Below, one piece after another: positions 1 through 15,874 of a stretch of DNA of 64,000 nt (positions are counted from its first letter, which is position 1; the number at the start of each line of letters is the position of its first letter). The stretch spans positions 1 to 64,000 of the forward strand of contig JBFXLE010000002.1 of the NCBI GenBank assembly GCA_050173015.1. The letters are read 5' to 3'. The position numbers and the translations under genes were made by a program. This DNA comes from Calditrichaceae bacterium (GTDB lineage: Bacteria > Calditrichota > Calditrichia > Calditrichales > JBFXGD01). The notes below the pieces were generated by a model that was not told where the DNA came from, did not search any database, and was given only the letters and a program-made list of their open reading frames with translations.

Positions 1-129
1 TTATTGCCACTTCCCGCAAACTTTTGGATATCATATATATGACGTTAAAGGAAAAATTAATCTTTGAAGATTTCCCAAATTTTGTAGTGAAATCTTCTTA
101 ACACTAAAGATTTTATCATAGGAGTTACA

Positions 130-858
130 ATGTCTATTGCTCCTAAACTTATTGACGAGTTGCTTAAAAATTACAAAAAACCCGAAGACGTCTGGGGGCA
201 GGAAGGTATTTTTGGTCAGATACAGAAAGCGCTGATGGAACATATCCTGCAGAATGAAATAGAATTTCATCTTGGCTACAAAAAACATTCGTCTGAAGGC
301 CAAAACAGCAGCAATTCCCGCAATGGTAAATCCAGGAAAACTATAATTACGGACAATGATTCACTGGAAATTGAAATCCCCCGCGACAGGATGGGTGAGT
401 TTGAACCACAGTTTGTTAAAAAGCATCAGTGTCGGATCAACAAATTTAACGATATGATCATTTCCTTATATTCTCGCGGACTCAGCACCGAAGAGATATG
501 CGGACATTTAAAAGAAATGTATGACACCGATGTGTCAAAGGAACTCATCTCACATATAACCAACAGTGTTTATGAAGAAGTTACAGCATGGCGTAACAGG
601 CTGATTGAGGAGCCTTACACGATTGTCTTTTTTGACGCCATACGAATAAAAATCCGCGATTCAGGAAAGATTCTCAATAAAGCAGTCTATTTGCTGGGGA
701 TTGACATTGAAGGACATAAGGAGCTTTTGGGTATGTGGATCGCCCATAATAAAGGAGCAAAATTCTGGCTATCTGTGTTGACCGAGCTAAAGAACCGGGG
801 CATAAAAGATATCCTGATTGCCTGTATTAATGGTTTAAAAGGCTTCCCCGAAGCCATT
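130..858 (+). pseudogene. IS256-family transposase, 5' part
   Basis: Motifs NSRNG, EIPRDR.GEFEPQ, FFDAI.IKIRD, GAKFWLSVLTELKNRG, GLKGFPEAI. Cut by IS21 at 858/859. Confidence 0.93.
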
Positions 859-917
859 TGATCAAAGTCAATTATTTTTTCTTACAGCGACAATTAAAAT
901 TCCCGGTTCTGTAAACC

Positions 918-969
918 AGGAATGATGTAACGAAGGAGCCCGTAGGGCGACTGTAGTTACATCATTCCT
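918..969. repeat. Hairpin with a perfect 14-bp inverted repeat overlapping the istB stop
   Basis: AGGAATGATGTAAC (918-931) / GTTACATCATTCCT (956-969) enclosing GCCC-GTA-GGGC. Confidence 0.85.
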
Positions 970-1750
970 TCGCCATCGAATTACCTCCTTTTGTTTTGTT
1001 GTTAGCCTTTAAGGGTCGTTTCTTTTGTGATTGTTCCAGACGATAACTTCCAATATTGAGTTCCAGGATAATGCTGTGATGAACCAGTCGGTCTATAGCT
1101 GCGGCGGTTGTCATGGGGTCCTTGAAAATTACTTCCCACTTTGAAAAAGGCAGATTACTGGTTATCATTATACTGGCGCGTTCATAGCGATCAGCCAGAA
1201 GGGTAAAAAGAACCTCCATCTCTTCCCGGCTCTGTTGTACATAGCCAATGTCATCGATTATAATCGCATCATATTTAGCAAGACGTTTCAGGTATTGTGG
1301 CAGTTTTAAATCCCGTTTGGCCACCAGCATTTCCTGCACCAGAAGATTGCAGGGCCGAAACAGCATTCTGCGTTCTTTGAAAATCAGTTCCTGAGTCAGG
1401 GCACACAACAGATGTGTTTTACCGCTTCCCGGATTCCCGAAAGCAAGAATATTCTCCGAACGATCCAGAAAGGTGCCGTCCAGGAGTACCCCTATCTGAG
1501 CATTAACCCTTTGAGGTAACCGCTTGCGGTTAAAAGACGCCAGGGTCTTTTCTAAGGGTAATCCGGATTCTCTCAGGAATCTGTCAATACGTTTCTCACG
1601 GCGCATTTGGCATTCATACTCAATGAGATTCAGTAAATACTGTTCGTAACTGTAAGACTCCGTTCTGGCAACATCAGACTGTTCTTTATAACAGGCACGT
1701 ATCGCCGGCAGATGCAGCTCCCGCAGACTGTTTTGAATCAGTTTTTCCAT
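962..1750 (-). CDS. istB: IS21 helper ATPase IstB
   Basis: Walker A GNPGSGKT, Walker B IIIDDIGY, TSNLPFSKW, AAIDRLVHH. Confidence 0.96.
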   Translation of the reverse strand: MEKLIQNSLRELHLPAIRACYKEQSDVARTESYSYEQYLLNLIEYECQMRREKRIDRFLRESGLPLEKTLASFNRKRLPQRVNAQIGVLLDGTFLDRSENILAFGNPGSGKTHLLCALTQELIFKERRMLFRPCNLLVQEMLVAKRDLKLPQYLKRLAKYDAIIIDDIGYVQQSREEMEVLFTLLADRYERASIMITSNLPFSKWEVIFKDPMTTAAAIDRLVHHSIILELNIGSYRLEQSQKKRPLKANNKTKGGNSMAKE

Positions 1751-3216
1751 CAGGCCACTCCTTCGACAAGCAGGCGGTCATAGATACGGATATCTACCGT
1801 ATCCACCTCAACAGCTTCTTTAATCGCATACTCCTGATTATGGTGAATCAGCTCTGATACTCTCTCGAAGCTGACAGGACGGTTCTCATGGATCAAAAGA
1901 GCAAGAGCCTGGTCTACTTTCGTTTCACTTTCTTTAGCGGCCAGATGCAGTATTTTGAGATATTCTTTGTTATTACGCTTTAAGCTGTCATAGGCCATAC
2001 GGAAACAGTGGCTGGGGAAAAGATCCCGATGGTAACGATAGTTGGCAAAGGCTCCCGGTTTGCGAACCAGCCAGTCAATAATATGACGATACTGAATATG
2101 ATGTTTTTCTTCTCCGCGCAAACGGGGGATCTTCTCCATACAGCGCTGACCATACCAGACTTCTAAATACTCAGCATACAGGCGAATCCGGACGGTTTCC
2201 CCGATCAGCCGGCTATCCACCGAATACACATTATGGGCAATACGGATCGTCGATGAGGGCCCCACTTTCAGAGGAAAACGTTTACAGGAATCGTAGCGGG
2301 TATCCGGAAGACGCCTTAACTGTTTCAACTCTTCATTAAGTCGTTCCCAGCGGCCGGCATTGAGTTGTGAGAACAGTTTTTCCAGGAAAGTTGTATATTC
2401 TTTACGGTTGTCAAAATCACGGCTGCTGCGCAGTAAAAGAGCCTGATCGAGAGCCTTCTTAAAACGGTAATGACGTTGTTCAATGTCGCCATTCTCATTG
2501 GGTTTAGCTGTTTGTATCTTATGAGCATCGAGTTTATAGTGTCGCATCAGGGCCTCATAACGACGCGTAAAATGCCGCCTTTTTTCTTTATGATTATTTG
2601 GAACCGCTGCGCTCATCCGGTCTGTACGATGGCTCCTGGGTACACCGCCTAATTTCCATAAGGCGCTTTGCAGGCCATCACTTAACGATTCAAAGCTTTC
2701 TGAGAAACAGATACTTCCTGCTTCCCAGTTTGAATACGTCAAAACAAAATGAAAAACAAGATGATTAAACGGTGCACCGCAAATAGTTATACCCAATGAA
2801 TTCATACAGGTAAAATCAGACTGGCACAGCTCACCGGCTTTATGGAGCTGAGGGAAAAAAACTTCCTTTGGCGGACCTTCCTGAACGCGCCAAATCTTAA
2901 TACGACGTTGTAGGGTTCTGAGTTGTCCATCGCAAAATTTACCGGGATAGCTGCGTTGCAGATAGTCAAAAATAGTTTTTGCTTCCAGGCCTGAATTCGT
3001 CTCTAATTTCTCTTTGATTTCCGGCCATACATCTGCAAAGGCATCTTCTCTGGTACGCCAGCCGTGCTCTGTTTTCACATCACAGGGTAATTTGCCAAGT
3101 CTTAAATACTTGCGAGCCGTTTTTTCATCCATGCCCGCTTTTGCAGCAGCAACTGCTACTGTTTTTTCTGATTTAATTGCTGTCATTAATATCCTCACTT
3201 GATTTTCTGTAACCAT
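1750..3216 (-). CDS. istA: IS21 transposase IstA
   Basis: N-terminal HTH (KTARKYL), CQSDFT, HRTDRM, NENGDIEQ, YSVDSRLIG. One-base overlap with istB. Confidence 0.95.
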   Translation of the reverse strand: MVTENQVRILMTAIKSEKTVAVAAAKAGMDEKTARKYLRLGKLPCDVKTEHGWRTREDAFADVWPEIKEKLETNSGLEAKTIFDYLQRSYPGKFCDGQLRTLQRRIKIWRVQEGPPKEVFFPQLHKAGELCQSDFTCMNSLGITICGAPFNHLVFHFVLTYSNWEAGSICFSESFESLSDGLQSALWKLGGVPRSHRTDRMSAAVPNNHKEKRRHFTRRYEALMRHYKLDAHKIQTAKPNENGDIEQRHYRFKKALDQALLLRSSRDFDNRKEYTTFLEKLFSQLNAGRWERLNEELKQLRRLPDTRYDSCKRFPLKVGPSSTIRIAHNVYSVDSRLIGETVRIRLYAEYLEVWYGQRCMEKIPRLRGEEKHHIQYRHIIDWLVRKPGAFANYRYHRDLFPSHCFRMAYDSLKRNNKEYLKILHLAAKESETKVDQALALLIHENRPVSFERVSELIHHNQEYAIKEAVEVDTVDIRIYDRLLVEGVA

Positions 3217-3321
3217 CCAGATCCTCCAATTTAATGATCTGGAAGTTTAAGCAATCCCATCAAAAAACAGGAATTTTAATTGTCGTCGAGCGGGAATTAT
3301 AAATGTCGCCAATCAGCCATT

Positions 3322-3802
3322 GAGTCGATTTAACCTGATACTGATATTCAACTATGTATTGTGCATATGATCCGCAATTCCGTACGTTTTGTTTCTTGGA
3401 AAGACCGTAAAAAAATCACTGCCGATCTAAAAAATATTTATAAGGCAGCGACCGAGGAAGAAGCTAAAATGCAGCTTGATAAATTTGCCCAAATATGGGA
3501 TAAGCAGTATCCGTCCATCAGCAAATCCTGGTATGAAAACTGGGAGAATTTAAAAACCTTTTATGATTTTCCGGAATATATTCGAAAGGTGATTTATACG
3601 ACTAAATACCATTGAATCGATAAATATGAGAGTGCGGAAAGTAACAAAAACAAGAGCCTCAGTTCAAAATGACAAAGCCGCTTATAAAATGCTTTATCTG
3701 GCAGTGCAGAATATTTCAAAAAAATGGAGCATGCCTATCAGAAACTGGAACCAGGCTATTAATCAATTTGCGCTGAAGTATGGAGATCGCGTAAATTTGT
3801 GA
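3322..3802 (+). pseudogene. IS256-family transposase, 3' part (nonsense codon and frameshift)
   Basis: Reads ESI*PDTDIQLCIVHMIRNS...RKVIYTT. A +1 shift near 3605 continues as TIESIN..RKVTKTR...KKWSMPIRNW to TGA at 3800-3802. Confidence 0.9.
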
Positions 3803-3935
3803 ACCAAACAAAAGGAATTTACACAAAATTATTTATGGGCTCTTTAAAGTTGGCAAGTTAACAAAATATTCATAGTATTAAATTTGTCCGAAAATTCCAG
3901 AAGGCTCTGAGGCAGAACAAAAACTATAATTTTTC

Positions 3936-3964
3936 TTGCATTCTCTTTTTAGACTCTTTATACT
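3936..3964 (+). promoter_or_regulatory. sigma70-type promoter upstream of the DUF1573-like gene
   Basis: TTGCAT-N17-TATACT. Confidence 0.6.
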
Positions 3965-4018
3965 AATTACAGCATTGATTTCAATCTGTTTTTAATTCGT
4001 AGCTACTCCTATCTCAGC

Positions 4019-4483
4019 ATGGGGACGAAAATGAAGTATAAAATTTTATTTATATCTCTTACTATTTTATCTCTTGAGATTATATTTATTACAAATTGTG
4101 GAATATATTATAACGTTCATGGCCCACAAATATCTTTTATGGAAGAATCTTATGATTTTGGAAATTTAGCGATCAATTCTAAGGCCTACCATAGATTTAG
4201 TTTTATAAATACTGGTAATGACACACTGAAAATTTTTCGAATAAATGATACCTGAGGTTGCACAGCAACAGTCCTGAGTTCAGGCGAAGTTATTCCAGGA
4301 AACAAAGGCGATATTATTATAACACTTTTTACTGGAAATAAAGTTGGGAAAATATTTAAAACAATAGAAGTTTTTACTAATGATTTAAAAAATAGCCCAA
4401 CTATACTAAATGTATCAGCTTCTATCATTCAAAGTAATGCGCAGGCAGCGAATGATTCTTTATTAAATTTAGATAACAGGTAA
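4019..4483 (+). CDS. DUF1573-like exported protein with in-frame TGA (candidate selenoprotein, U-G-C motif)
   Basis: YDFG...F.F.NTGNDTLKI...T[TGA]GCTATV...IPG.KG.I...K.IEVFTND is continuous through TGA 4253-4255 to TAA 4481-4483. Hydrophobic N-terminus. Confidence 0.8.
4271..4285 (+). promoter_or_regulatory. Putative bacterial SECIS hairpin
   Basis: G-T-CCTG-AGTT-CAGG-C: 4-bp stem plus bulged U and a closing G-C pair, with G at loop position 2. 21 nt separate the UGA from the loop. Confidence 0.55.
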
Positions 4484-4719
4484 TCAGAGAGTTTAAATAA
4501 TATAGTATTATTAATGTTTAAGTTTGTAAATTACGTTTTGCAGAATATTCACTTTTTTTGTTTTTAAAGTACACTCAAAAAAATCTGAATATCAATTATA
4601 ACAATTTGTATTCACTGCGATTTAAATATTCGATGTACACAGGCCTTAATATCATTAGTTAATTATAAAATGGCAATATATATGAATTGTTATAATTGAT
4701 TAGGAATTAGGAGAATAAA

Positions 4720-5703
4720 ATGCGAAAAATAATTTATTACATCAGTTCACTTAAGATTTTATTTTTCTCTTCGTTTTTACTTATCATTAGTTGTGTGGAC
4801 TCCCCAGAATCCTTGTCACCTCTTGGGGTTGAGAATGTAATTCCTGTAGGTTCGGCCTCTTGGAATATAGGTGTTAGAGAATACATATTTGATAAATCAG
4901 GGGTGAATAATGAACTAAAAGTCTTACACGTGAATGAAACTTATAACGCATCTATAAAATTCGAAACAAATGAAGCTGAAGTGACTAAAGTATTGTATCA
5001 TGACAAAAATAAATATTTAAAATTTTCGTTTGATCAAAAAAATAATCTTTTCTGTTTTACTGATAATAATGATGAAACAATTACTTTCCACTTCAATGGA
5101 GAAAAATGGATTTCGGATGGATGTGACTTAGACGAAGCTTTAGATGTCATTAAAAATAATCGAATGGAAATAATGCTAATGGCTGGCTCTGTAGCGGATT
5201 TTAAAATGTATGAGTACCTGCAAAAGAATAATAGCCATAAAGATATCGGCGCCAATGGTGGTGAAATACGCAAAACTGCTTATTTCTGTGACTATACCAC
5301 TGAACTTAAGGGTGACGCCCAAGGGCTTAGTAGAACCTCTGCGTGTTGGGATGCAACTAATAATGTAAATGATAATTGTTTTAATTCTGTATGCAACGGT
5401 TGTTGTGATTACCAGTCCTATGATTGTGATTGTATTTGTATCCCTTACCTCGGTGATTTTCTTTGTTCCTGCACTATAATTGGATTTCCTTGTGTGGAGG
5501 AACCCATTGATCCACCTCCCCCTCTTGGGGATGGTGAATGTACTGGTTCATGTTATATATGTACAACATGTGAGTATATTTATGATTCTGCAAACGGGGA
5601 TCCCGAGAATGGTATCATTCAAGGCACTGTTTTTAGTGATCTTCCGGATGATTGGAATTGTCCTATTTGTGGTGCCAGCAAAGATTCTTTTTATGAATAT
5701 TAA
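4720..5703 (+). CDS. Cys-rich lipoprotein with C-terminal rubredoxin domain
   Basis: RBS AGGAG and lipobox-like LIISC. A 12-Cys segment, a PPPP linker, then [41 protein letters not shown]. Confidence 0.85.
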
Positions 5704-6084
5704 TAGAAAACAAACTGATTATTTCTTTAGCTCTGTATAAGTGATAATATGCGCATTGAGACAAGCAATGAATAAGTGTTTAAATATATTAGTTTCAATA
5801 AATTGCCAAGTAAACTGATAACAAAACTCTGTCAGGAATCTTTGCAAATGTTTTGGCATACAGCATGTTGAACACCTTTGATTATTCCTTTCACATCACT
5901 AATCATAATGTGAATCAAAGCCTATATTTAAGTTATCCTTGGATTATTATTTTTAATGAATTGAAGAGAGAATATTTCCTGATTAAGCTATATATAAGAT
6001 TTATATCTTTAAATTATATATGACTACTTTGAGTGATGAATAGGCGATATCACTTTTAACGATTATCAAACATACAAACCGGAA

Positions 6085-6381
6085 ATGATTTCGGTCTATG
6101 AGATACCGATTCCTCAGGCCATGAATCCTGCTCTGAGAAGCAGTATTATGTCTTTGGTGAGTCATATTTCGACGGATAGTATGATCGTCCGATTTGAAAC
6201 GGTATATAAAGATAAACCTTATGCCATAGTGTATTTCGTTAATGGAAAAGTAAAAGAAAGCGGTTTATTCAGTTTATTAACCGCGGATACATTAACAGTG
6301 CATTATTCGAATGGTAAAACCGGTCAGAAGCTAAACCCGTTCAGATTCCCGGAAAAGGGGGCGATTGTTACAGAGAACTAA
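6085..6381 (+). CDS. Hypothetical protein, probably a 5'-truncated remnant
   Basis: The frame is open upstream to about 6040 with no RBS, and begins where the AT-rich islet ends. Confidence 0.4.
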   Translation: MISVYEIPIPQAMNPALRSSIMSLVSHISTDSMIVRFETVYKDKPYAIVYFVNGKVKESGLFSLLTADTLTVHYSNGKTGQKLNPFRFPEKGAIVTEN

Positions 6382-6607
6382 TAAAATGTTTTTAGATTAG
6401 ATAGATTAGTAGATGGCCGGACAGGATTGATTAAGGATTAAAAATATGAAACTTCGCTCCCGGCCACCTGCTATTTTTTTGAAAATCCGGCTGAACAACT
6501 AATAATACCGTCTTAGAATATTGAAACAAAATTATTAACCGCCTGTTAAGCCATACCTCGAAAACCTCCGTTTCAAAATATCGTCCTCCCATTTATTTAA
6601 AATTCTC

Positions 6608-6653
6608 TTGAAAAAAGCAATCTTTATTATTATATTTCGCCATATAACGAAAT
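6608..6653 (+). promoter_or_regulatory. ars promoter with putative ArsR operator
   Basis: TTGAAA-N17-TATATT (6608-6636) overlapped by ATTTCG-N8-CGAAAT (6634-6653). Confidence 0.75.
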
Positions 6654-6662
6654 GGAGTATTT

Positions 6663-7007
6663 ATGAGAGAGATTGTCAAAACTTTTAAAGCCTTATCAGA
6701 CAGCAACAGGATACGTATATTAAAAATGCTGGAGGTAAGACCGCTTTGTGTATGTGAAATAACCTCGGTCCTTCAACTGGCGGCATCCACGGTCTCAAAA
6801 CACTTATCAATCCTACGGGACGCGGAATTTATAATAGATGAAAAAGAAGGTAAGTGGGTGAATTATTATTTAAACACCCATCAGACAAATGAATATATCC
6901 GTCATTTACTGCCGTTGATCCGCACATGGCTGCCGGATGAACTTATGGTAAAAAATGATCAAAACAAAGTAAAAATAGTTAACAGAAACGATCTCTGCGG
7001 TATCTGA
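6663..7007 (+). CDS. arsR: ArsR/SmtB metalloregulator
   Basis: FKALSD.NRIRIL, LCVCEI, STVSKHL..LR, EGKWVNY. Confidence 0.93.
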   Translation: MREIVKTFKALSDSNRIRILKMLEVRPLCVCEITSVLQLAASTVSKHLSILRDAEFIIDEKEGKWVNYYLNTHQTNEYIRHLLPLIRTWLPDELMVKNDQNKVKIVNRNDLCGI

Positions 7008-7019
7008 TGATGATATGTC

Positions 7020-7039
7020 ATTTCGGGATCAAACGAAAT
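7020..7039. promoter_or_regulatory. Second copy of the putative ArsR operator
   Basis: ATTTCG-N8-CGAAAT, same arms and spacing as 6634-6653. Confidence 0.65.
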
Positions 7040-7058
7040 ATTAAAAAATGGATTTAAT

Positions 7059-8360
7059 ATGAGCTGGAAAGATGAATATAAAAACTTACTCTGGATTCTG
7101 GGTTTTTTTCTGTTGGCTTATCTGATGCCGGTGAATGATCCTGTCTTTAGGACAGCGGTTAATTCATCCTTAGAATTAAGTAAATGGTATGCGCAGGAAC
7201 ATGTTTTATTATGTCTTGTCCCCGCATTTTTTATCGCCGGCGTTATAGCGGTTTTTATAAGTCAGGCCGCGGTTATAAAGTATTTCGGCGCCAATGCTAA
7301 AAAATGGGTCTCATATGCGGTCGCATCTGTTTCGGGAACCATTTTAGCGGTCTGTTCATGCACGATTCTGCCGTTATTTTCGGGTATTCATAAACGAGGC
7401 GCGGGTCTGGGACCGGCTATTGCTTTTCTTTATTCAGGTCCCGCTATCAATATCCTGGCAATCATTCTCACGGCCCGTATACTGGGTTTGGAACTTGGTA
7501 TCGCGCGAGTTGTGGGTGCTGTTGTCTTTTCTGTTGTAATCGGTTTGTGTATGCATTTTATCTATAGAAAAGAGGAAGCGGCAAAGGCCGATGCTCAGAT
7601 GGCGATGCCGGAACCCGAAGAAGCCCGGCCCTTATGGCAAACTTCTTTTCATTTCTTTGTATTAGTACTTATTCTTGTATTCGCAAACTGGGGTAAACCG
7701 GATACCACCTCTGGGATCTGGTATAATTTGTATCACTTTAAATGGATGATAACTTCCTTTTTTGGAATACTCTTAGGCATATCGTTGATATATATCTTAA
7801 AATTAAATAAATGGTATGTTATCACCGGGATGGCCCTGACTTTTGTGTCCTATATTCTCATACCGGATAATCCGCTGATCCCATTTATTGTCGGTATTGT
7901 GTCCCTTAGTGTGATCATTTCTGTCGTGCCGGGCGAATCTCAGGAATGGATGTCGGAGACCTGGGGATTTACCAAACAGATTTTACCACTGCTTGCCGCG
8001 GGTGTGGTGGTGGCGGGTTTTCTGCTTGGTTCACAAACAGGCGGCGCGGGAATCATCCCGAACGAATGGATATCCGGATTTGTCGGGGGTAATTCACTCA
8101 GTGCCAATTTTTTTGCTTCGATTGTGGGTGCATTTATGTATTTTGCCACTTTAACCGAAGTTCCGATTTTACAGGGACTTATCCAGGCCGGAATGGGCAA
8201 AGGACCGGCATTGGCTCTGCTGTTGGCCGGACCGGCGCTTTCGCTGCCGAATATGCTTGTTATTCGCGGGGTCATCGGAACACAAAAAACTCTGGTTTAC
8301 ACCGGACTGGTGGTAGTCATGGCTACTATCAGCGGGATGTTGTACGGTAGCCTGATGTAA
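7059..8360 (+). CDS. DUF318/ArsP-family permease
   Basis: Multi-TM, with AVCSCTILPLF, AFLYSGPAIN, YFATLTEVP, LLAGPALSLP. Confidence 0.85.
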   Translation: MSWKDEYKNLLWILGFFLLAYLMPVNDPVFRTAVNSSLELSKWYAQEHVLLCLVPAFFIAGVIAVFISQAAVIKYFGANAKKWVSYAVASVSGTILAVCSCTILPLFSGIHKRGAGLGPAIAFLYSGPAINILAIILTARILGLELGIARVVGAVVFSVVIGLCMHFIYRKEEAAKADAQMAMPEPEEARPLWQTSFHFFVLVLILVFANWGKPDTTSGIWYNLYHFKWMITSFFGILLGISLIYILKLNKWYVITGMALTFVSYILIPDNPLIPFIVGIVSLSVIISVVPGESQEWMSETWGFTKQILPLLAAGVVVAGFLLGSQTGGAGIIPNEWISGFVGGNSLSANFFASIVGAFMYFATLTEVPILQGLIQAGMGKGPALALLLAGPALSLPNMLVIRGVIGTQKTLVYTGLVVVMATISGMLYGSLM

Positions 8361-8405
8361 ATCCGGCAGACAACATCCGTTGAATACGATAGGAGTATAA
8401 ATTTA

Positions 8406-8816
8406 ATGCGTATCTTGATTCTTTGTACCGGGAATTCCTGCCGCAGTCAAATGGCGGAAGGTTTTCTTAAATCCTTTGATCCCGCGCTTGAAGTGCATTC
8501 CGCGGGTACAAATCCCTCGGAGCGGATTCACCCCAAGGCCGTTCAGGTGATGAATGAAATCGGTATTGATATCAGCAAAAACATTCCAAAAAATGTGGAT
8601 CAGTTTATTGAAAAATCTTTTGATTATGTGATCACGGTGTGTGATCATGCCAGGGAAACCTGCCCGGTGTTTATGGGGAAGGTGAAACATCGTCTGCATA
8701 TCGGGTTTGACGACCCGGCCGAAGCTGCAGGCAGTGAAGATGAGATCCTGAATGTGTTTCGCCGTGTACGCGATGAAATAGAAGGTGATTTTTTAAAATT
8801 TTATAATAATATATGA
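8406..8816 (+). CDS. arsC: Thioredoxin-dependent arsenate reductase (LMW-PTP fold)
   Basis: LCTGNSCRSQMAEG, VITVCD, CPVF, FDDPA. Confidence 0.93.
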   Translation: MRILILCTGNSCRSQMAEGFLKSFDPALEVHSAGTNPSERIHPKAVQVMNEIGIDISKNIPKNVDQFIEKSFDYVITVCDHARETCPVFMGKVKHRLHIGFDDPAEAAGSEDEILNVFRRVRDEIEGDFLKFYNNI

Positions 8817-8895
8817 GTGAATCAAAGAAAAGCAAACGGGAATAAAATCACATTGAACCCCCCTGCTTTTCCAGTAAATTGAAGGGAGAATTGTC

Positions 8896-9141
8896 ATGTT
8901 AAATATTAAGGTTGTCGGCAGCGGATGTCCGAGTTGTCAAAAATTAGAAGCATTGTGCCGTGAGATTGTCGCGGAGAAAAATGTTGTCGCGGAGATTGAA
9001 AAAATTACCGATGTCAATCAATTCGCTAATCTGGGAATCATGATGACACCCGGGCTGTTGCTAAACAATAAAGTGGTCAGCAGCGGTAAAATTCCGCTAA
9101 AATCGACGCTCGAACACTGGATCATTGAAGCTGAAGGTTAA
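8896..9141 (+). CDS. Small thioredoxin-like redox protein (MTH895/ArsE-like)
   Basis: [23 protein letters not shown]. Confidence 0.88.
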
Positions 9142-9169
9142 TTTGCAACTTAATAATCGGAGAATAGAT

Positions 9170-10234
9170 ATGTCATCCGTGACCCGTCGATTGTCTTTTC
9201 TGGACCGTTTTTTAACACTCTGGATTTTTCTGGCCATGTTTATTGGTGTTTTTTCGGGTTATTTGTTCCCGGGAATAGTGGATTTCTGGAGTATGTTTCA
9301 GGTCGGGACAACCAATATTCCGATTGCCATTGGATTAATTCTAATGATGTATCCGCCATTGGCCAAGGTTAAATACGAAGAACTCGGCGATGTATTCAAA
9401 AACATCAAAATTCTTGGTCTTTCGTTAATACAGAATTGGATCATCGGACCGGTGCTTATGTTTGCCTTGGCGGTTCTTTTCTTAAGCGATCAGCCTCATT
9501 ATATGGCCGGGTTGATCATGATAGGCCTGGCAAGGTGTATCGCGATGGTTATCGTCTGGAATGAGCTGGCCAAGGGGGATTCTGAATACGCCGCCGGTTT
9601 GGTCGCGCTGAACTCGGTATTCCAGGTGCTGTTTTTTTCCGTTTACGCGTATATATTTTTAACGGTGCTGCCGGATTGGCTTGGGCTGCAAACATTTTCT
9701 GTCAATGTAACCATTGGTCAGATCGCCGAAAGCGTTTTTATATATCTGGGCATCCCGTTTATTGCCGGAATTATCACCCGTTTCACAATGCTGAGAATTA
9801 AGGGAAAAGACTGGTACGAACAAAAGTTTATTCCGAAAATCAGTCCAATCACTCTGATCGCGTTATTATTTACCATTATTGTCATGTTTTCCCTCAAGGG
9901 GGAATTTATTGTCAAAATTCCTTTTGATGTCATACGAATTGCGATACCGCTTGTGTTTTATTTTGTGATCATGTTTCTGGTCTCCTTTTATCTCGGGAAA
10001 AAAGCGGGCGCGGATTATTCCAAAACTGCCACGCTCTCATTTACGGCGGCAAGCAATAATTTTGAGCTGGCGATCGCGGTCGCCGTTGCCGTATTCGGCA
10101 TCAATTCCGGTGAAGCCTTCGCCGCGGTAATCGGACCTTTGGTCGAGGTACCCGTGCTAATAGGTCTGGTCAATGTAGCGTTGTGGTTTCAAAAAAGATA
10201 CTTTGGTTCAGAATTAGACACGGAAAAAGTATAG
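9170..10234 (+). CDS. acr3: ACR3-family arsenite efflux transporter
   Basis: [49 protein letters not shown]. Start set at the ATG after GGAG. Confidence 0.95.
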
Positions 10235-10323
10235 AAGGTCCTGTTTTATAGTTCAAAATTATCATCCGACATTTTTTAATTATCTGGCTATCAGAGCCGG
10301 TATTACAATAAGGAGTTAAAAAT

Positions 10324-10953
10324 ATGTTTCAATTACCTGAATGGACATTTGAATTTCACGGACATCGCTGTCCTTTTATGCCAATCGGTTACAGAATGGG
10401 AGCATTAGCAATGGAGAAACTTGGCGTAGAGAAAAGTTTAGATCACCAGATGCATGTTTTTTCTGAAATGGGCACCGGCCATCCGCAGGGCTGTATGCAG
10501 GATGGAATTATGTCTGCCACCGGCGCGACTTTTGGCAAAGGTATGATCGATAAATTGAATTACGGCAAAGTAGCAGCCATCTTCTGGTATCCGGGAAAAA
10601 AGGATGCTATAAGAATATTTCTGAAAAATGAGTTTCAGGATAAACTCGCGCCGCACGATTTTTTTAAATACCGCAAACAAGGGATTGAACCATCCGAAAT
10701 TCCGGAAGAAATCAGAAAAGATATTATAGATATAGTCCTTAACGCAACAGAAGATGAACTGTTTAAGGTGACTATTCTCCGGGACTTTAAATACACACCG
10801 GTTAAAGGCACCTTCAACAAAGCCAAATGTGAAGGATGCGGGGAGTATGTTTTTGAAAGGTACCTTCGTGTGAAGGACGCGAAGAAAGTATGTATTTCCT
10901 GTTCGGAAAGAGAAACGGAAGAAACCGTAATTCATCTGCCAAAAATTTCATAA
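10324..10953 (+). CDS. FmdE-family protein with C-terminal C4 zinc finger
   Basis: FHGHRCP, GCMQDGI...GATFGKG, CEGCGE...CISC. Confidence 0.88.
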   Translation: MFQLPEWTFEFHGHRCPFMPIGYRMGALAMEKLGVEKSLDHQMHVFSEMGTGHPQGCMQDGIMSATGATFGKGMIDKLNYGKVAAIFWYPGKKDAIRIFLKNEFQDKLAPHDFFKYRKQGIEPSEIPEEIRKDIIDIVLNATEDELFKVTILRDFKYTPVKGTFNKAKCEGCGEYVFERYLRVKDAKKVCISCSERETEETVIHLPKIS

Positions 10954-10961
10954 AGGAAAAA

Positions 10962-11711
10962 ATGTTATACGCTATCATAGCACTCATCATTTTTGCCGCA
11001 TCATTTCTGTTTGCCATGCTTGGATTGGGCGGTGGGATGATATATGTTCCCGTACTCAAATGGGCAGGTTTTTCAGTAAAAGAAGTTGCCATCCCGTTGG
11101 GCTTATTATTAAACGGATTAAATACACTGCTTGCTCTAATTCCGTTCGCGCGAAAAAAGCTGGTTGACTGGAAAGGCGGTTCGGCGATGGCTCTGGCCGC
11201 TTTGATATTTGCGCCAATTGGCGCTTACAGCGCACAGTTTGTACCTGTAAACACTCTGCTTATCCTATTCGCCATTGCCGTACTTGCCGCCGCGGTGCGG
11301 ATGGTATTCTTTGCCAGAAATCCCGAGCCGGAAAAAATGATGGATATCAAAAAACGCTCCGTAATCGGCACAGTCGTTGGTGCTATCGCCGGCTTTTCAG
11401 GGGGATTACTCGGTATTGGCGGCGGTTTCATTATAGCGCCCATTTTGATGTGGATGGGGTATAAAACTAAGCAAGCCGCAGCCACAACGGCATTTGTCGT
11501 TACATTTTCTTCTTTATCCGGATATCTCGGTCATATGGCTGAAGGTCATTTCAATTGGACATTAACGACTATCGTTGTTATCGCGGTCGTGGTCGGTTCG
11601 CAACTCGGTGGTAGTTTTATGAGTTCAAAGGCTAAACCAAAGTGGGTAAAAAGTATCTATGCTGCTGTGCTCTTTGTGATCGCCATTAAACTTTTTATCG
11701 GGGCTGTTTAA
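10962..11711 (+). CDS. TauE/SafE (DUF81) sulfite-exporter-family protein
   Basis: Repeated GLGGG/GIGGG motifs, multi-TM. Start set at the ATG after AAGGA. Confidence 0.9.
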   Translation: MLYAIIALIIFAASFLFAMLGLGGGMIYVPVLKWAGFSVKEVAIPLGLLLNGLNTLLALIPFARKKLVDWKGGSAMALAALIFAPIGAYSAQFVPVNTLLILFAIAVLAAAVRMVFFARNPEPEKMMDIKKRSVIGTVVGAIAGFSGGLLGIGGGFIIAPILMWMGYKTKQAAATTAFVVTFSSLSGYLGHMAEGHFNWTLTTIVVIAVVVGSQLGGSFMSSKAKPKWVKSIYAAVLFVIAIKLFIGAV

Positions 11712-11712
11712 A

Positions 11713-12708
11713 GTGAAAAATATATCTGCAACAGTACTTATTATCTTTTTCATAGCAGCCATTTTAGCGCGACCAAATTTGGCACAGTCCAATACCGAAT
11801 GGAATGGTTATTTGCAAAGCAGGATAAGCGCTGATCCTGATAACTATAATGATATTATGGTGCGTAGGGCCAAACTTTGGTTAAAAGGAAACCTGCAGCA
11901 GATTGAACATCTTTCATATAAGATACAGGTTGTGTACCGGTCTTTCAAAGATACCCAATTTATGGTGCAGGATGTTTATGCTAAATACGAAACAAAAAGT
12001 CATCTAATTCAAATAGGCAGAATGGTCCCGGATTTTACTTTACAAAGAAACCAGCCGGATACGCAAATACCCGTTCTTGAACGTGCCGGGGTTATAGACG
12101 GTTTGATCCACGGTGACCAATCGATCGCCCGAATGATTGGCATTCAGTATAAGTTGAATACCGGCAACGTTTTTCACCTGGGATTAGGGATTTTTAACGC
12201 GAATCCGAATGAGCCCGGCATGAATAAGGATAAATCATTTCTTTATACACTAAGAAACAGCTACACTTTTAGTATTGATAATGATTCAGAATTTCACCTG
12301 GGATTTTCGTTCGCCTACCGAAAACTAAATGACCTGAGTCTTCCCAAAATTTACAATTCAACTACAAAAGTATCCGGTGATGACTATCGCTGGGGATTTG
12401 AATCCGGTTTAAATATCAGAAATATTGAAATTCAGGGTGAATATCTTACGGCCAATATTAATAGGGACAGGGTATGGGGCTATTATGGCTTGGTCTCCCT
12501 AACGATTTCTGAGAAATATCAACCAACAATGCATATTGAAAAATATGCCGATTTAAATTTAGCCACTGATGATAGTGAATGGTACAGGATTGGGCTAAAC
12601 TATTTTATTACAAAAAAAACAAAAATAATGAGTGATTTTGGCACCCAGCTTTCATCTGAAAAAAATAATTATTTATTAAGGTTACAACTACAGGTTTTTT
12701 ACAATTAA
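11713..12708 (+). CDS. Outer-membrane porin (OprO/OprP-like)
   Basis: Signal peptide, GYLQSR...VRRAKL..KG, QGEY, beta-signal-like C-terminus LQLQVFYN. Confidence 0.75.
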   Translation: MKNISATVLIIFFIAAILARPNLAQSNTEWNGYLQSRISADPDNYNDIMVRRAKLWLKGNLQQIEHLSYKIQVVYRSFKDTQFMVQDVYAKYETKSHLIQIGRMVPDFTLQRNQPDTQIPVLERAGVIDGLIHGDQSIARMIGIQYKLNTGNVFHLGLGIFNANPNEPGMNKDKSFLYTLRNSYTFSIDNDSEFHLGFSFAYRKLNDLSLPKIYNSTTKVSGDDYRWGFESGLNIRNIEIQGEYLTANINRDRVWGYYGLVSLTISEKYQPTMHIEKYADLNLATDDSEWYRIGLNYFITKKTKIMSDFGTQLSSEKNNYLLRLQLQVFYN

Positions 12709-12726
12709 AATAAAGGAAAAAAGCAA

Positions 12727-13329
12727 ATGATTAATCCACAGGAATGGCTTGAATTCGGACAAAAATTTCACGGACATAAATGTCCCGCGATGCCGATGGG
12801 ATTGAGGGTAGGCGCCGCGGCCATGAACAAATTAGGGGTTGAACGCGCTAAAGACGGACAAATCGTCGCGTTCGTCGATCTTGGTGATGATCACTGTGCC
12901 ACCTGCTTCGGAGATGGACTGCAGGTAATAATGGGAACGACCTTTGGTAAAGGGAATATCAAGAAAACACACAAAGGGAAATGGGCGGTTACGCTTGTTG
13001 ACAGAGCAACCGGCAAAGCAGTTCGGGCAACACCCAAAGCGGAAGCCATGCTGGCTAATAAGCAAACCGATTTTTTCAAAGAATACAGAGAAAAGGGTAT
13101 TCCTGCCAGCCATGTTCCCGATGCGGTTGTTGAACCGCTGGTCCAAAAAGTGATGGGAGCCCCGGATGAGATGCTGCTGAATATATCCGATGTATTTGTA
13201 TATAACCTTGAACCGAAGAAAGACAGTTTTGCCGGATTTGTTTGCGAAGAATGTGGGGAAATGACTGTCATGGAATACGGCCGTATTAAAGGTGAACAGA
13301 AAGTTTGCCAGGATTGTGCGGCAAAATAA
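12727..13329 (+). CDS. FmdE-family protein with C-terminal C4 zinc finger (second paralog)
   Basis: FHGHKCP, HCATCFGDGLQ...GTTFGKGN, CEECGE...CQDC. Confidence 0.88.
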   Translation: MINPQEWLEFGQKFHGHKCPAMPMGLRVGAAAMNKLGVERAKDGQIVAFVDLGDDHCATCFGDGLQVIMGTTFGKGNIKKTHKGKWAVTLVDRATGKAVRATPKAEAMLANKQTDFFKEYREKGIPASHVPDAVVEPLVQKVMGAPDEMLLNISDVFVYNLEPKKDSFAGFVCEECGEMTVMEYGRIKGEQKVCQDCAAK

Positions 13330-13388
13330 ATTTTCATTCGCTCTGCGAAGTTTTATAAAGCCGAGTAATTTAAACCCGGGAATTAAAC

Positions 13389-14297
13389 ATGGCAAATCAT
13401 CATAATCATTCAGCCGAGATAACTTCAGAAAAGAATTTATTTCTGACAATGGCGCTGAATTTTATTATCACCATCGCGGAAGTTATCGGCGGACTCATTT
13501 CCGGCAGTCTGTCCTTAATTTCCGACGCCCTGCATAATTTCAGCGATGGTTTGGCGATCATTATTTCATACATTGCCCTGCGTCTGAGTAAGAAACCCAA
13601 TACATCAAGATATACATTTGGCCTGAAACGCGCGGAGATTATTGCCGCCATCATCAATGCCAGTACGCTTATTATTATCAGTTTCTTTTTAATAAAAGAA
13701 GCCATCGAACGGTTTTATCATCCATCCCCGATAACCGGCGGAATCATGCTAATCGTCGCTATTATCGGACTTGCCGCAAATGTGATCGGAACATTGCTTT
13801 TAAAGAAAGGTTCCGAATCAAATCTTAATATCCGGGCTGCCTATTTTCATTTATTGAGTGACGCAATTTCCAGCCTTGCGGTTATCATCGGAGCTGTATT
13901 TATTATTTTTTATAAAATTTACTGGGTTGATCCGCTGTTAACGATTCTCATCTCTGTTTACATATTGACGGAAACCTATTCAATAGTAAAAGAAGCGGTC
14001 GATATTGTAATGATGTCTTCCCCGCATGGAATTGAAATAAACGATGTTAAAACTTTGGTGGAGTCCACAGACGGGGTAAAAAATATTCACCATGTTCACA
14101 TATGGAAAATGAACGATAATGACACCCATTTTGAAGCGCATATTGAAGTTGTAGATATGATGGTGAGTGAATCTTCGAAGATTCAAAACCTTATTGAAAA
14201 AAAATTACACGAAAAATATGATATCAACCACACGACTTTACAATTCGAATGCGACAGGTGTGATTATAAAAATATAATAGCGCAAGGAATCGTATAA
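13389..14297 (+). CDS. Cation diffusion facilitator (CzcD/ZitB-like)
   Basis: SDALHNFSD, FHLLSD, HHVHIW, HTTLQFE. Confidence 0.93.
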   Translation: MANHHNHSAEITSEKNLFLTMALNFIITIAEVIGGLISGSLSLISDALHNFSDGLAIIISYIALRLSKKPNTSRYTFGLKRAEIIAAIINASTLIIISFFLIKEAIERFYHPSPITGGIMLIVAIIGLAANVIGTLLLKKGSESNLNIRAAYFHLLSDAISSLAVIIGAVFIIFYKIYWVDPLLTILISVYILTETYSIVKEAVDIVMMSSPHGIEINDVKTLVESTDGVKNIHHVHIWKMNDNDTHFEAHIEVVDMMVSESSKIQNLIEKKLHEKYDINHTTLQFECDRCDYKNIIAQGIV

Positions 14298-14463
14298 ATC
14301 AAAAAGAAAAGACACCCATGGAATTACTTAAACATTTCGCGCCGGAGTTTGCTGAAAACCATATACTGAAAAAGGCGCTGAATGTAGCCCGTTATATGAA
14401 ACAGGATATGGTTAACGACACCACGGATAATTCGTTAAAGATATAACTGGAGGAAAAATAAAT

Positions 14464-14703
14464 ATGGTTACTGTAAAAGTTCTCGGCGCGGGATGCACAA
14501 AATGCAAAGCGCTTGAGCAACGCTTAAATGATATAAAAACCAGGCACAATTTGGAAATCGAAATTGTAAAGATAACACAGCTTGATGAAATCATGAACTA
14601 TGGCGTCATGATGACCCCCGGCCTCGTTATCAATGAAAAACTCAGAAGCAGCGGGAAAGTGCCTGATGAAAATCAACTTCTAAAATGGATTGAGGAAGCT
14701 TAA
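14464..14703 (+). CDS. Small thioredoxin-like redox protein (MTH895/ArsE-like), second paralog
   Basis: VKVLGAGCTKC, GVMMTPGLVIN, SSGKVP. RBS GGAGG. Confidence 0.88.
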   Translation: MVTVKVLGAGCTKCKALEQRLNDIKTRHNLEIEIVKITQLDEIMNYGVMMTPGLVINEKLRSSGKVPDENQLLKWIEEA

Positions 14704-15162
14704 ATGAAAAAATTGATGTTTATTATTCTGATCAGTGGTCACTTATTTTTATCGGTTTCATGCGAAAAAGAGAACAACGGTGCAGAAAAATTGGAAACAG
14801 CTACTGATGAGACAGCCGAAGTAGAAGAAATTTCGCAGACCATAACAGCAGAAAAGTCAGAAGAAGCTCTTATTACATTTGTCGAGCTCGGGTCGGTAAA
14901 CTGTGTGCCGTGCAAAAAAATGCAGCCGGTGATGAAGGCTGTGGAAGATAAATACGGCAGTCAGATTAAAGTGATATTTTACGATGTATGGCAAAAAGAT
15001 CAAAATAAGTATGCGGAACAATATGGGATCCGGCTGATTCCCACTCAGGTGTTTTTAGACGCGGACGGTAATGAAATATCACGTCATGAAGGATTTTTTC
15101 CGGAGGCGGAAATCGATCAGCTATTACAAAAACAGGGTCTGAAACCACTTAATGTAAACTGA
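14704..15162 (+). CDS. Thioredoxin-family lipoprotein
   Basis: Lipobox-like LSVSC, CVPC active site, IPTQVF, RHEG. Confidence 0.88.
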   Translation: MKKLMFIILISGHLFLSVSCEKENNGAEKLETATDETAEVEEISQTITAEKSEEALITFVELGSVNCVPCKKMQPVMKAVEDKYGSQIKVIFYDVWQKDQNKYAEQYGIRLIPTQVFLDADGNEISRHEGFFPEAEIDQLLQKQGLKPLNVN

Positions 15163-15169
15163 GATTATT

Positions 15170-15874
15170 ATGATTGAAATGATATTTTCCTATCTAACAA
15201 CAGCGCTCGACGGCAGTTTCACACTTGCATTATTTGCAGCGGCCGGGTGGGGTGTGCTCAGCATTATGCTCAGTCCCTGTCACCTTTCCGGTATTCCCCT
15301 GGTTATTGGTTATATCAGCAGCAGGGGACAGATTAAAGTGAAACATTCCTTCTATCTGGCTTTTATGTTCTCCATAGGTATATTGATCACTATCGCGTTA
15401 ATCGGTTTAATCACCGTTTTAATGGGTCGTCTGATGGGTGATGTCGGTGTGTGGGGTAATTATTTTGTGGCTGTCATTTTTATCCTTATGGGATTATATC
15501 TCATGGATATTATTCACTGGGATTGGAATAGAGGGCAGGCGGGTCGATCACAGAGGGGTGGTTTATGGGGAGCTTTTCTTCTTGGATTGGTGTTCGGAAT
15601 TGGGCTGGGACCCTGCACGTTCGCTTTTTTAGCGCCGCTCCTCGGTGTGGTTTTTCGTGCTGCTTCGAACGACTGGCTCAAATCAGTCATGCTGATCGGT
15701 GGATTCGGATTTGGTCATTGCGCGGTTATTATTGCCGCGGGAAGTCTGACCAATCTTGTACAACGTTATCTAAACTGGTCAGATAGCTCAAAAACAATAC
15801 TCTATATCAAAAGAGCAGCCGGATTTCTGGTCACTGTAGGCGGACTATATTTTGTTTATATCAGTTTCGCGTAA
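15170..15874 (+). CDS. CcdA/DsbD-beta transmembrane electron transporter
   Basis: LSPCHL and GPCT conserved Pro-Cys motifs, multi-TM. Confidence 0.88.
   Translation: MIEMIFSYLTTALDGSFTLALFAAAGWGVLSIMLSPCHLSGIPLVIGYISSRGQIKVKHSFYLAFMFSIGILITIALIGLITVLMGRLMGDVGVWGNYFVAVIFILMGLYLMDIIHWDWNRGQAGRSQRGGLWGAFLLGLVFGIGLGPCTFAFLAPLLGVVFRAASNDWLKSVMLIGGFGFGHCAVIIAAGSLTNLVQRYLNWSDSSKTILYIKRAAGFLVTVGGLYFVYISFA

Follow-up and report, generated by a model that had tools for sequence, protein, structure and literature searches.

The window analysed here comprises 64,000 nucleotides of contig JBFXLE010000002.1 from a Calditrichaceae bacterium and carries a gene for a 327-residue protein in which a rubredoxin is fused to a predicted cysteine-rich lipoprotein (Table 1). 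The parts, in order, are a lipoprotein signal, a β-meander domain, a 12-Cys domain, a proline linker and the rubredoxin. The frame is open for 330 codons and has no in-frame extension upstream. A residue count of the translation confirms the 21 cysteines given in a preliminary description of the gene: Cys25 in the lipobox, a pair in the N-terminal domain (112, 135), twelve in the 12-Cys domain (190, 209, 220, 225, 228, 229, 236, 238, 240, 249, 251, 258), a pair in the linker (274, 278) and the four rubredoxin ligands (281, 284, 314, 317). The same positions (190–258, with PPPP at residues 265–268) bear out a 12-Cys segment and PPPP linker ahead of the rubredoxin.

Table 1. Features of the fusion gene and its surroundings (window positions).
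Feature	Position	Strand	Basis or remark
Coding sequence of the cysteine-rich lipoprotein-rubredoxin fusion	4720..5703	+	327 aa, without internal stop
Shine-Dalgarno-like AGGAGA ahead of ATG	4709..4714	+	sequence
Predicted Sec/SPase II signal, IISC lipobox, predicted lipidated Cys25	4720..4794	+	heuristic rules
N-terminal domain, residues ~41-173: predicted antiparallel beta-meander, then two helices	4840..5238	+	AlphaFold2
12-Cys domain, residues ~188-258: predicted beta-alpha-beta-beta, RcsF/dodecin/DUF74-like	5281..5493	+	AlphaFold2, fold comparison, covariation
Pro-rich linker with further Cys pair (274, 278); holds GGAGG 5496-5500 and ATT 5506	5494..5553	+	sequence
Rubredoxin domain, CTTC...CPIC, without its own start codon	5554..5700	+	PF00301, PDB sequence match, alignment
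DUF1573/OS_HP2-like exported selenoprotein gene, same fragment	4019..4483	+	TGA at 4253 in T-U-G-C
Repeat, left boundary of low-GC fragment	3843..3923		also at four other genome places (three at or near contig ends)
Decayed 3' end of IS1595-family element	5716..5912	-	terminus 12 nt past fusion gene stop
3' remnant of 4Fe-4S membrane-protein gene	6046..6381	+	intact (~648 aa) in same-genus G001 (C38)

The rubredoxin is complete, as first described. PF00301 matches residues 279–324 (positions 5554–5691) over model positions 2–47 of 47, scoring 71.7 bits where the cut-off is 23 (E 5.1e-20), and the best PDB sequence match of the tail is 1e8j (E 1.8e-18). All 12 columns conserved in at least 85% of 31 other rubredoxin sequences are kept, both CxxC knuckles included, and 18 of the 38 variable columns are matched; in this alignment, column conservation shows an intact rubredoxin domain and is no evidence of selection after fusion. 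The protein, 327 residues long with a signal, scores 75.9 bits against the 90 set for the stand-alone rubredoxin model NF045768. Identity of the tail reaches 72% over 46 residues to P0066, and 58% to the stand-alone rubredoxins that were fetched. The fused domain has Ala where its alignment reaches residue 44 of Clostridium pasteurianum rubredoxin; according to PMC10130062, this exchange yields a high-potential form of the C. pasteurianum protein. The host genome has no other PF00301 match, and a rubredoxin match is absent in 81 of 86 genomes of the host phylum.

Rubredoxins are treated as cytoplasmic proteins and normally work inside the cell. The N-terminus of the fusion protein has a basic n-region, a hydrophobic stretch (11-residue hydropathy 2.88) and IISC at residues 22–25, and no twin-arginine motif was found in it. 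By simple heuristic rules for the lipobox and hydrophobic region, and with two LspA matches in the genome, the lipoprotein signal proposed earlier holds; Cys25 is predicted from these features to be lipidated.

A single 6549-nt contig from run X1 spans the fusion gene (window 98–6646) at a uniform depth of 32.8, with 0 differences and 0 gaps. Because one uniform-depth, difference-free contig covers this interval, the rubredoxin join is present in the DNA and is not chimeric; X1 may be the source sample, so that it tests the assembly and adds no second occurrence. The full-length protein in the public collection comes from Logan. The NCBI representative of its 90% cluster is a 65-residue product starting at ATT 5506 that holds the linker and rubredoxin only, an annotation trap in that the public record for the fusion gene consists of this product alone.

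Relatives of the core were sought with residues 25–272 against 1.84 billion representatives, which gave 54 proteins of 24–49% identity. None of the 54 reaches a Pfam cut-off and NCBIfam has no family model for them, their main weak NCBIfam matches being Tat-signal models. A degenerate DNA motif located 70 genome loci, of which the profile score marks 35 as true members, and metagenome and viral loci yielded 56 true members among 121 candidates; members without Cys229 are under-sampled in these sets because the motif requires the CC pair. Most named hosts belong to Acidobacteriota and Chloroflexota; Bacillota, Actinomycetota, Balneolota and others are also represented. Within the window's own phylum the family was found in 1 of 86 genomes, that of the host. 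Host KdsA shares 57% identity with a Calditrichaceae metagenome-assembled genome (MAG) and 47% with a Chitinophagales MAG, which hints weakly at the lineage. No fixed gene neighbourhood was found for the family elsewhere.

The rubredoxin profile matches 1 of 147 family open reading frames (ORFs), namely the fusion gene. For a base rate, 212 genomes were taken, 61 from the class to which a Desulfobacteraceae MAG belongs and 151 from the phylum of a Balneolaceae MAG, and these hold 203 rubredoxin matches. Inspection covered all 25 open frames of at least 180 residues and 10 shorter loci, and a hydrophobic, signal-like N-terminus was found in none of them (maximum 1.72 versus 2.88). The architecture noted at the outset is real and uncommon: each part belongs to a known kind, none of the scanned libraries has a model for the core family, and no relative found shares the combination, which is known from one genome only. 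No report of a lipoprotein- or Sec-exported rubredoxin fusion, or of a secreted dodecin-like disulfide family, was found in open-access literature at the level of listings. Known rubredoxin fusions, which we take to include flavorubredoxin, a rubredoxin-FMN glutamate-synthase-like protein and GNAT-rubredoxin, and to which a flavin reductase-rubredoxin fusion can be added, share with the fused domain, as do PF00301 and NF045768, both CxxC knuckles and the aromatic core, but differ from the fusion protein in its lipoprotein signal and disulfide-type domain ahead of the rubredoxin.

Long tails are present in 14 of 119 distinct domains, mostly behind Pro- or Gly-rich linkers; apart from the rubredoxin, these 13 tails consist of small modules rich in Cys, of EF-hand-like repeats or of other sequence. 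Tails this varied make the family C-terminus an exchange point. The suggestion of a recent domain capture stands as far as a lineage-restricted capture is concerned, but not as to its being recent: the rubredoxin part shares the low third-position G+C (GC3) of the rest of the gene (0.20, as against 0.29–0.30), and the genome has no other rubredoxin as donor. Homologues without rubredoxin combined with a chimeric join had been named as a finding that would undo the description; the homologues do lack the domain, but the join is sound.

AlphaFold2, with a 50-sequence alignment, predicts the N-terminal domain at a pLDDT (predicted local distance difference test) of about 87–98; this domain is conserved across the family, and its fold matches are generic only. 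The 12-Cys domain is predicted at pLDDT >90 as a helix and three strands, and comparison of the model suggests that it is probably related to the RcsF/dodecin fold group (RcsF, DUF1471, YbjQ, DUF74, dodecin), with which neither the fusion protein nor its 54 relatives have a Pfam or NCBIfam sequence match. RcsF, an outer-membrane lipoprotein, has four cysteines, as against 12 in this domain, and is monomeric where YbjQ and DUF74 are pentameric; the fusion protein has the β-meander and rubredoxin tail in addition. The work defines a family without a Pfam or NCBIfam model that extends over several phyla, with an exchangeable tail and a heavily disulfide-bonded (predicted) RcsF/dodecin-like domain.

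Covariation among 105 non-redundant Cys domains bears on the state of these cysteines. Conservation is 98% or higher for nine, and the others change in pairs. All 83 sequences with Cys208 or Cys238 have Cys251, as do 2 of 22 with neither; Cys208 and Cys238 never occur together in the same sequence; Cys188 is accompanied by Cys261 or Cys262 in 25 of 25; and Cys261 is gained in 8 of 10 sequences without Cys229. The Cys251 and Cys188 patterns persist at 50% redundancy. Such paired gain and loss looks like disulfide partner swapping. We infer that the core likely contains disulfides, probably six of them in the 12-Cys domain. The metal sink earlier suggested for this segment is disfavoured because its cysteines co-vary in pairs. 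A metallothionein-like sink, a Cys-rich chain with little regular structure and cysteines as clustered ligands, does not agree with the confident helix-and-strand prediction and pairwise covariation. MauA, the methylamine dehydrogenase light chain, is likewise an exported small 12-Cys domain with six disulfides and thiol-oxidoreductase helpers (MauD/MauE) nearby; it was rejected as a relative, having no Pfam match here, a different predicted fold and no Mau-type neighbour among the 73 flanking proteins scanned. In the host genome (97.5% complete), DsbD/CcdA is found and DsbA, DsbB and VKOR have no match; VKOR has no match in any of 41 genomes (the host, G000, and 40 relatives), and the G000 lineage may lack the usual disulfide-forming pathway.

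Thiol-redox partners occur elsewhere in the family. A weakly scoring DCC1-like CxxC domain precedes an internal signal in 13 of 56 representatives (P0004, P0009, P0013, P0015, P0017, P0019, P0021, P0026, P0028, P0033, P0037, P0043, P0047; also in L008, L012, L077, L086), and the signal is RR-like in 10 of the 13; a domain ahead of an internal, often twin-arginine-like signal is an unusual topology. TlpA-like neighbours are found at 6 of 91 true versus 0 of 98 false loci, four of those six having seeded the profile.

With a GC3 of 0.27, where the median is 0.44, the fusion gene ranks among the lowest 2% of the 1878 long host ORFs. It and the selenoprotein gene came in together on foreign DNA that was inserted in front of a native arsenic/redox cluster: the repeat on the left is a probable insertion sequence (IS) end, and on the right the remnant, the last third of a kilobase of the 4Fe-4S gene (including the 98-residue ORF at 6085), marks the insertion site. 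The selenoprotein paralogue at C4:133527–133877 has a TGA at the aligned place, and SelA (C2:95973) and tRNA-Sec are present in the genome. PMC1976440 counts OS_HP2 among the selenoprotein families. To the left lies an IS256 transposase gene (130–3843), frameshifted and split by a complete IS21 (istA 1750–3216, istB 962–1750, minus strand). The arsenic/metal-redox cluster occupies 6663–15874 and, judged from the translations, presumably encodes ArsR-, permease-, ArsC-, Acr3-, FmdE- and CDF-like proteins; it also holds two MTH895-type thioredoxins, an exported thioredoxin and a CcdA/DsbD-like protein. Since the fragment is foreign and the cluster native, their adjacency is no evidence of shared function.

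The best-supported functional reading, to which we give slightly less than an even chance, is that the rubredoxin acts as a tethered redox site for the disulfide-rich core. The protein would be exported unfolded by Sec and anchored through Cys25, and its core, in which a β-meander packs against a small RcsF/dodecin-like domain held together by six disulfides, would most likely be an envelope binding or sensing module whose exchangeable tail is a rubredoxin in one lineage. In an envelope without DsbA, DsbB or VKOR the rubredoxin thiols could stay free and take up Fe(II) outside the cytoplasm. Set against the range of disulfide potentials, Fe(III)-rubredoxin is oxidising relative to protein dithiols. 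The rubredoxin range behind this comparison is given in passages of PMC10130062. The tethered one-electron site would oxidise, or report the redox state of, core cysteines; in other family members this task may fall to DCC1-like CxxC fusions and TlpA neighbours. Iron binding by the exported tail is a prediction, and iron loading and redox coupling to the core are the least supported steps; a putative extracytoplasmic electron carrier, as first proposed, is plausible. The stricter version, that the Sec-exported rubredoxin is a cis-acting oxidant for the six-disulfide domain in a host without detectable DsbA, DsbB or VKOR, is unlikely; if true, it would be a self-contained iron-based route to envelope disulfide formation or redox sensing. 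The fusion protein, being small and soluble, would let a single construct address both the cytoplasmic view of rubredoxins and the question of how disulfide-rich exported proteins are folded where DsbB and VKOR are absent.

Several observations weigh against the disulfide reading of the core cysteines. Related sequences share Cys states (yet Cys208 occurs in several clades of a quick tree), total cysteine parity is only weakly even (63 to 42), and DsbB or VKOR was also not found in 22 of 34 other family hosts. The fusion is a singleton on a mobile fragment, which limits its value. In favour of a passenger tail, one family ORF carries a rubredoxin and the remaining tails form a mixed, unrelated set; IS ends flank the gene, the IS1595 terminus coming directly after its stop; the core forms an isolated long branch in the tree; and the rubredoxin scores 71.7 bits, where the best stand-alone ones reach 85–93. 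With one occurrence and an IS setting, it is nearly as likely, at about one chance in three, that a rubredoxin gene fell in frame onto a permissive C-terminus during mobile-element shuffling and adds nothing specific, the core doing an ordinary job or itself drifting. The clean in-frame join, the complete domain with every conserved column, the same low GC3 across the join and the recurrence of thiol-redox partners in the family speak against such a passenger.

It is improbable that the 12 cysteines stay reduced in the periplasm as ligands for Zn, Cu, Cd or As, the rubredoxin providing one more site and the neighbouring arsenic/metal cluster using the protein. The missing Dsb and VKOR matches would suit reduced thiols, as would the CxCxC and CC motifs, the metal binding predicted for YbjQ in passages of PMC4092069, and the ArsR/ArsC/Acr3-like genes (named from their translations) that start at 6663; but cysteines are gained, lost and re-partnered strictly two by two, the domain is regular and confidently folded in prediction, the cluster is native to the genus with the fragment inserted ahead of it, and no recurrent metal-resistance neighbour appeared among the 73 flanking proteins. 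Less probable still is a second product, in which the internal GGAGG and ATT start yield a 65-residue cytoplasmic rubredoxin, the only one of the genome, the fusion itself being incidental. This product is the one called in public annotation, no other PF00301 match exists in the genome, and host rubrerythrin matches could use a rubredoxin. However, ATT starts are rare, the GGAGG-ATT pattern lies inside 119 of 1878 long ORFs of the host, 81 of 86 phylum genomes manage without a rubredoxin match, and SOR and Rubredoxin_C have no match. A joining of two genes in assembly, conceivable for an architecture that occurs once and lies close to an IS-rich contig end, is largely refuted by the X1 contig, which has no joint in the gene.

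Directly upstream of the fusion gene, in very AT-rich DNA, is a 40-nt imperfect inverted repeat (4591–4630/4661–4700, 78%), which may be chance or a regulatory site. Among the family members, P0025 (517 residues) joins a NurA-like N-terminal part to the Cys domain and is possibly a chimeric or frameshifted call. A phage-like viral contig (L187:2875–3420) codes for a protein, predicted to be secreted, that has the Cys domain and no β-meander, at a borderline profile score of 30.5.
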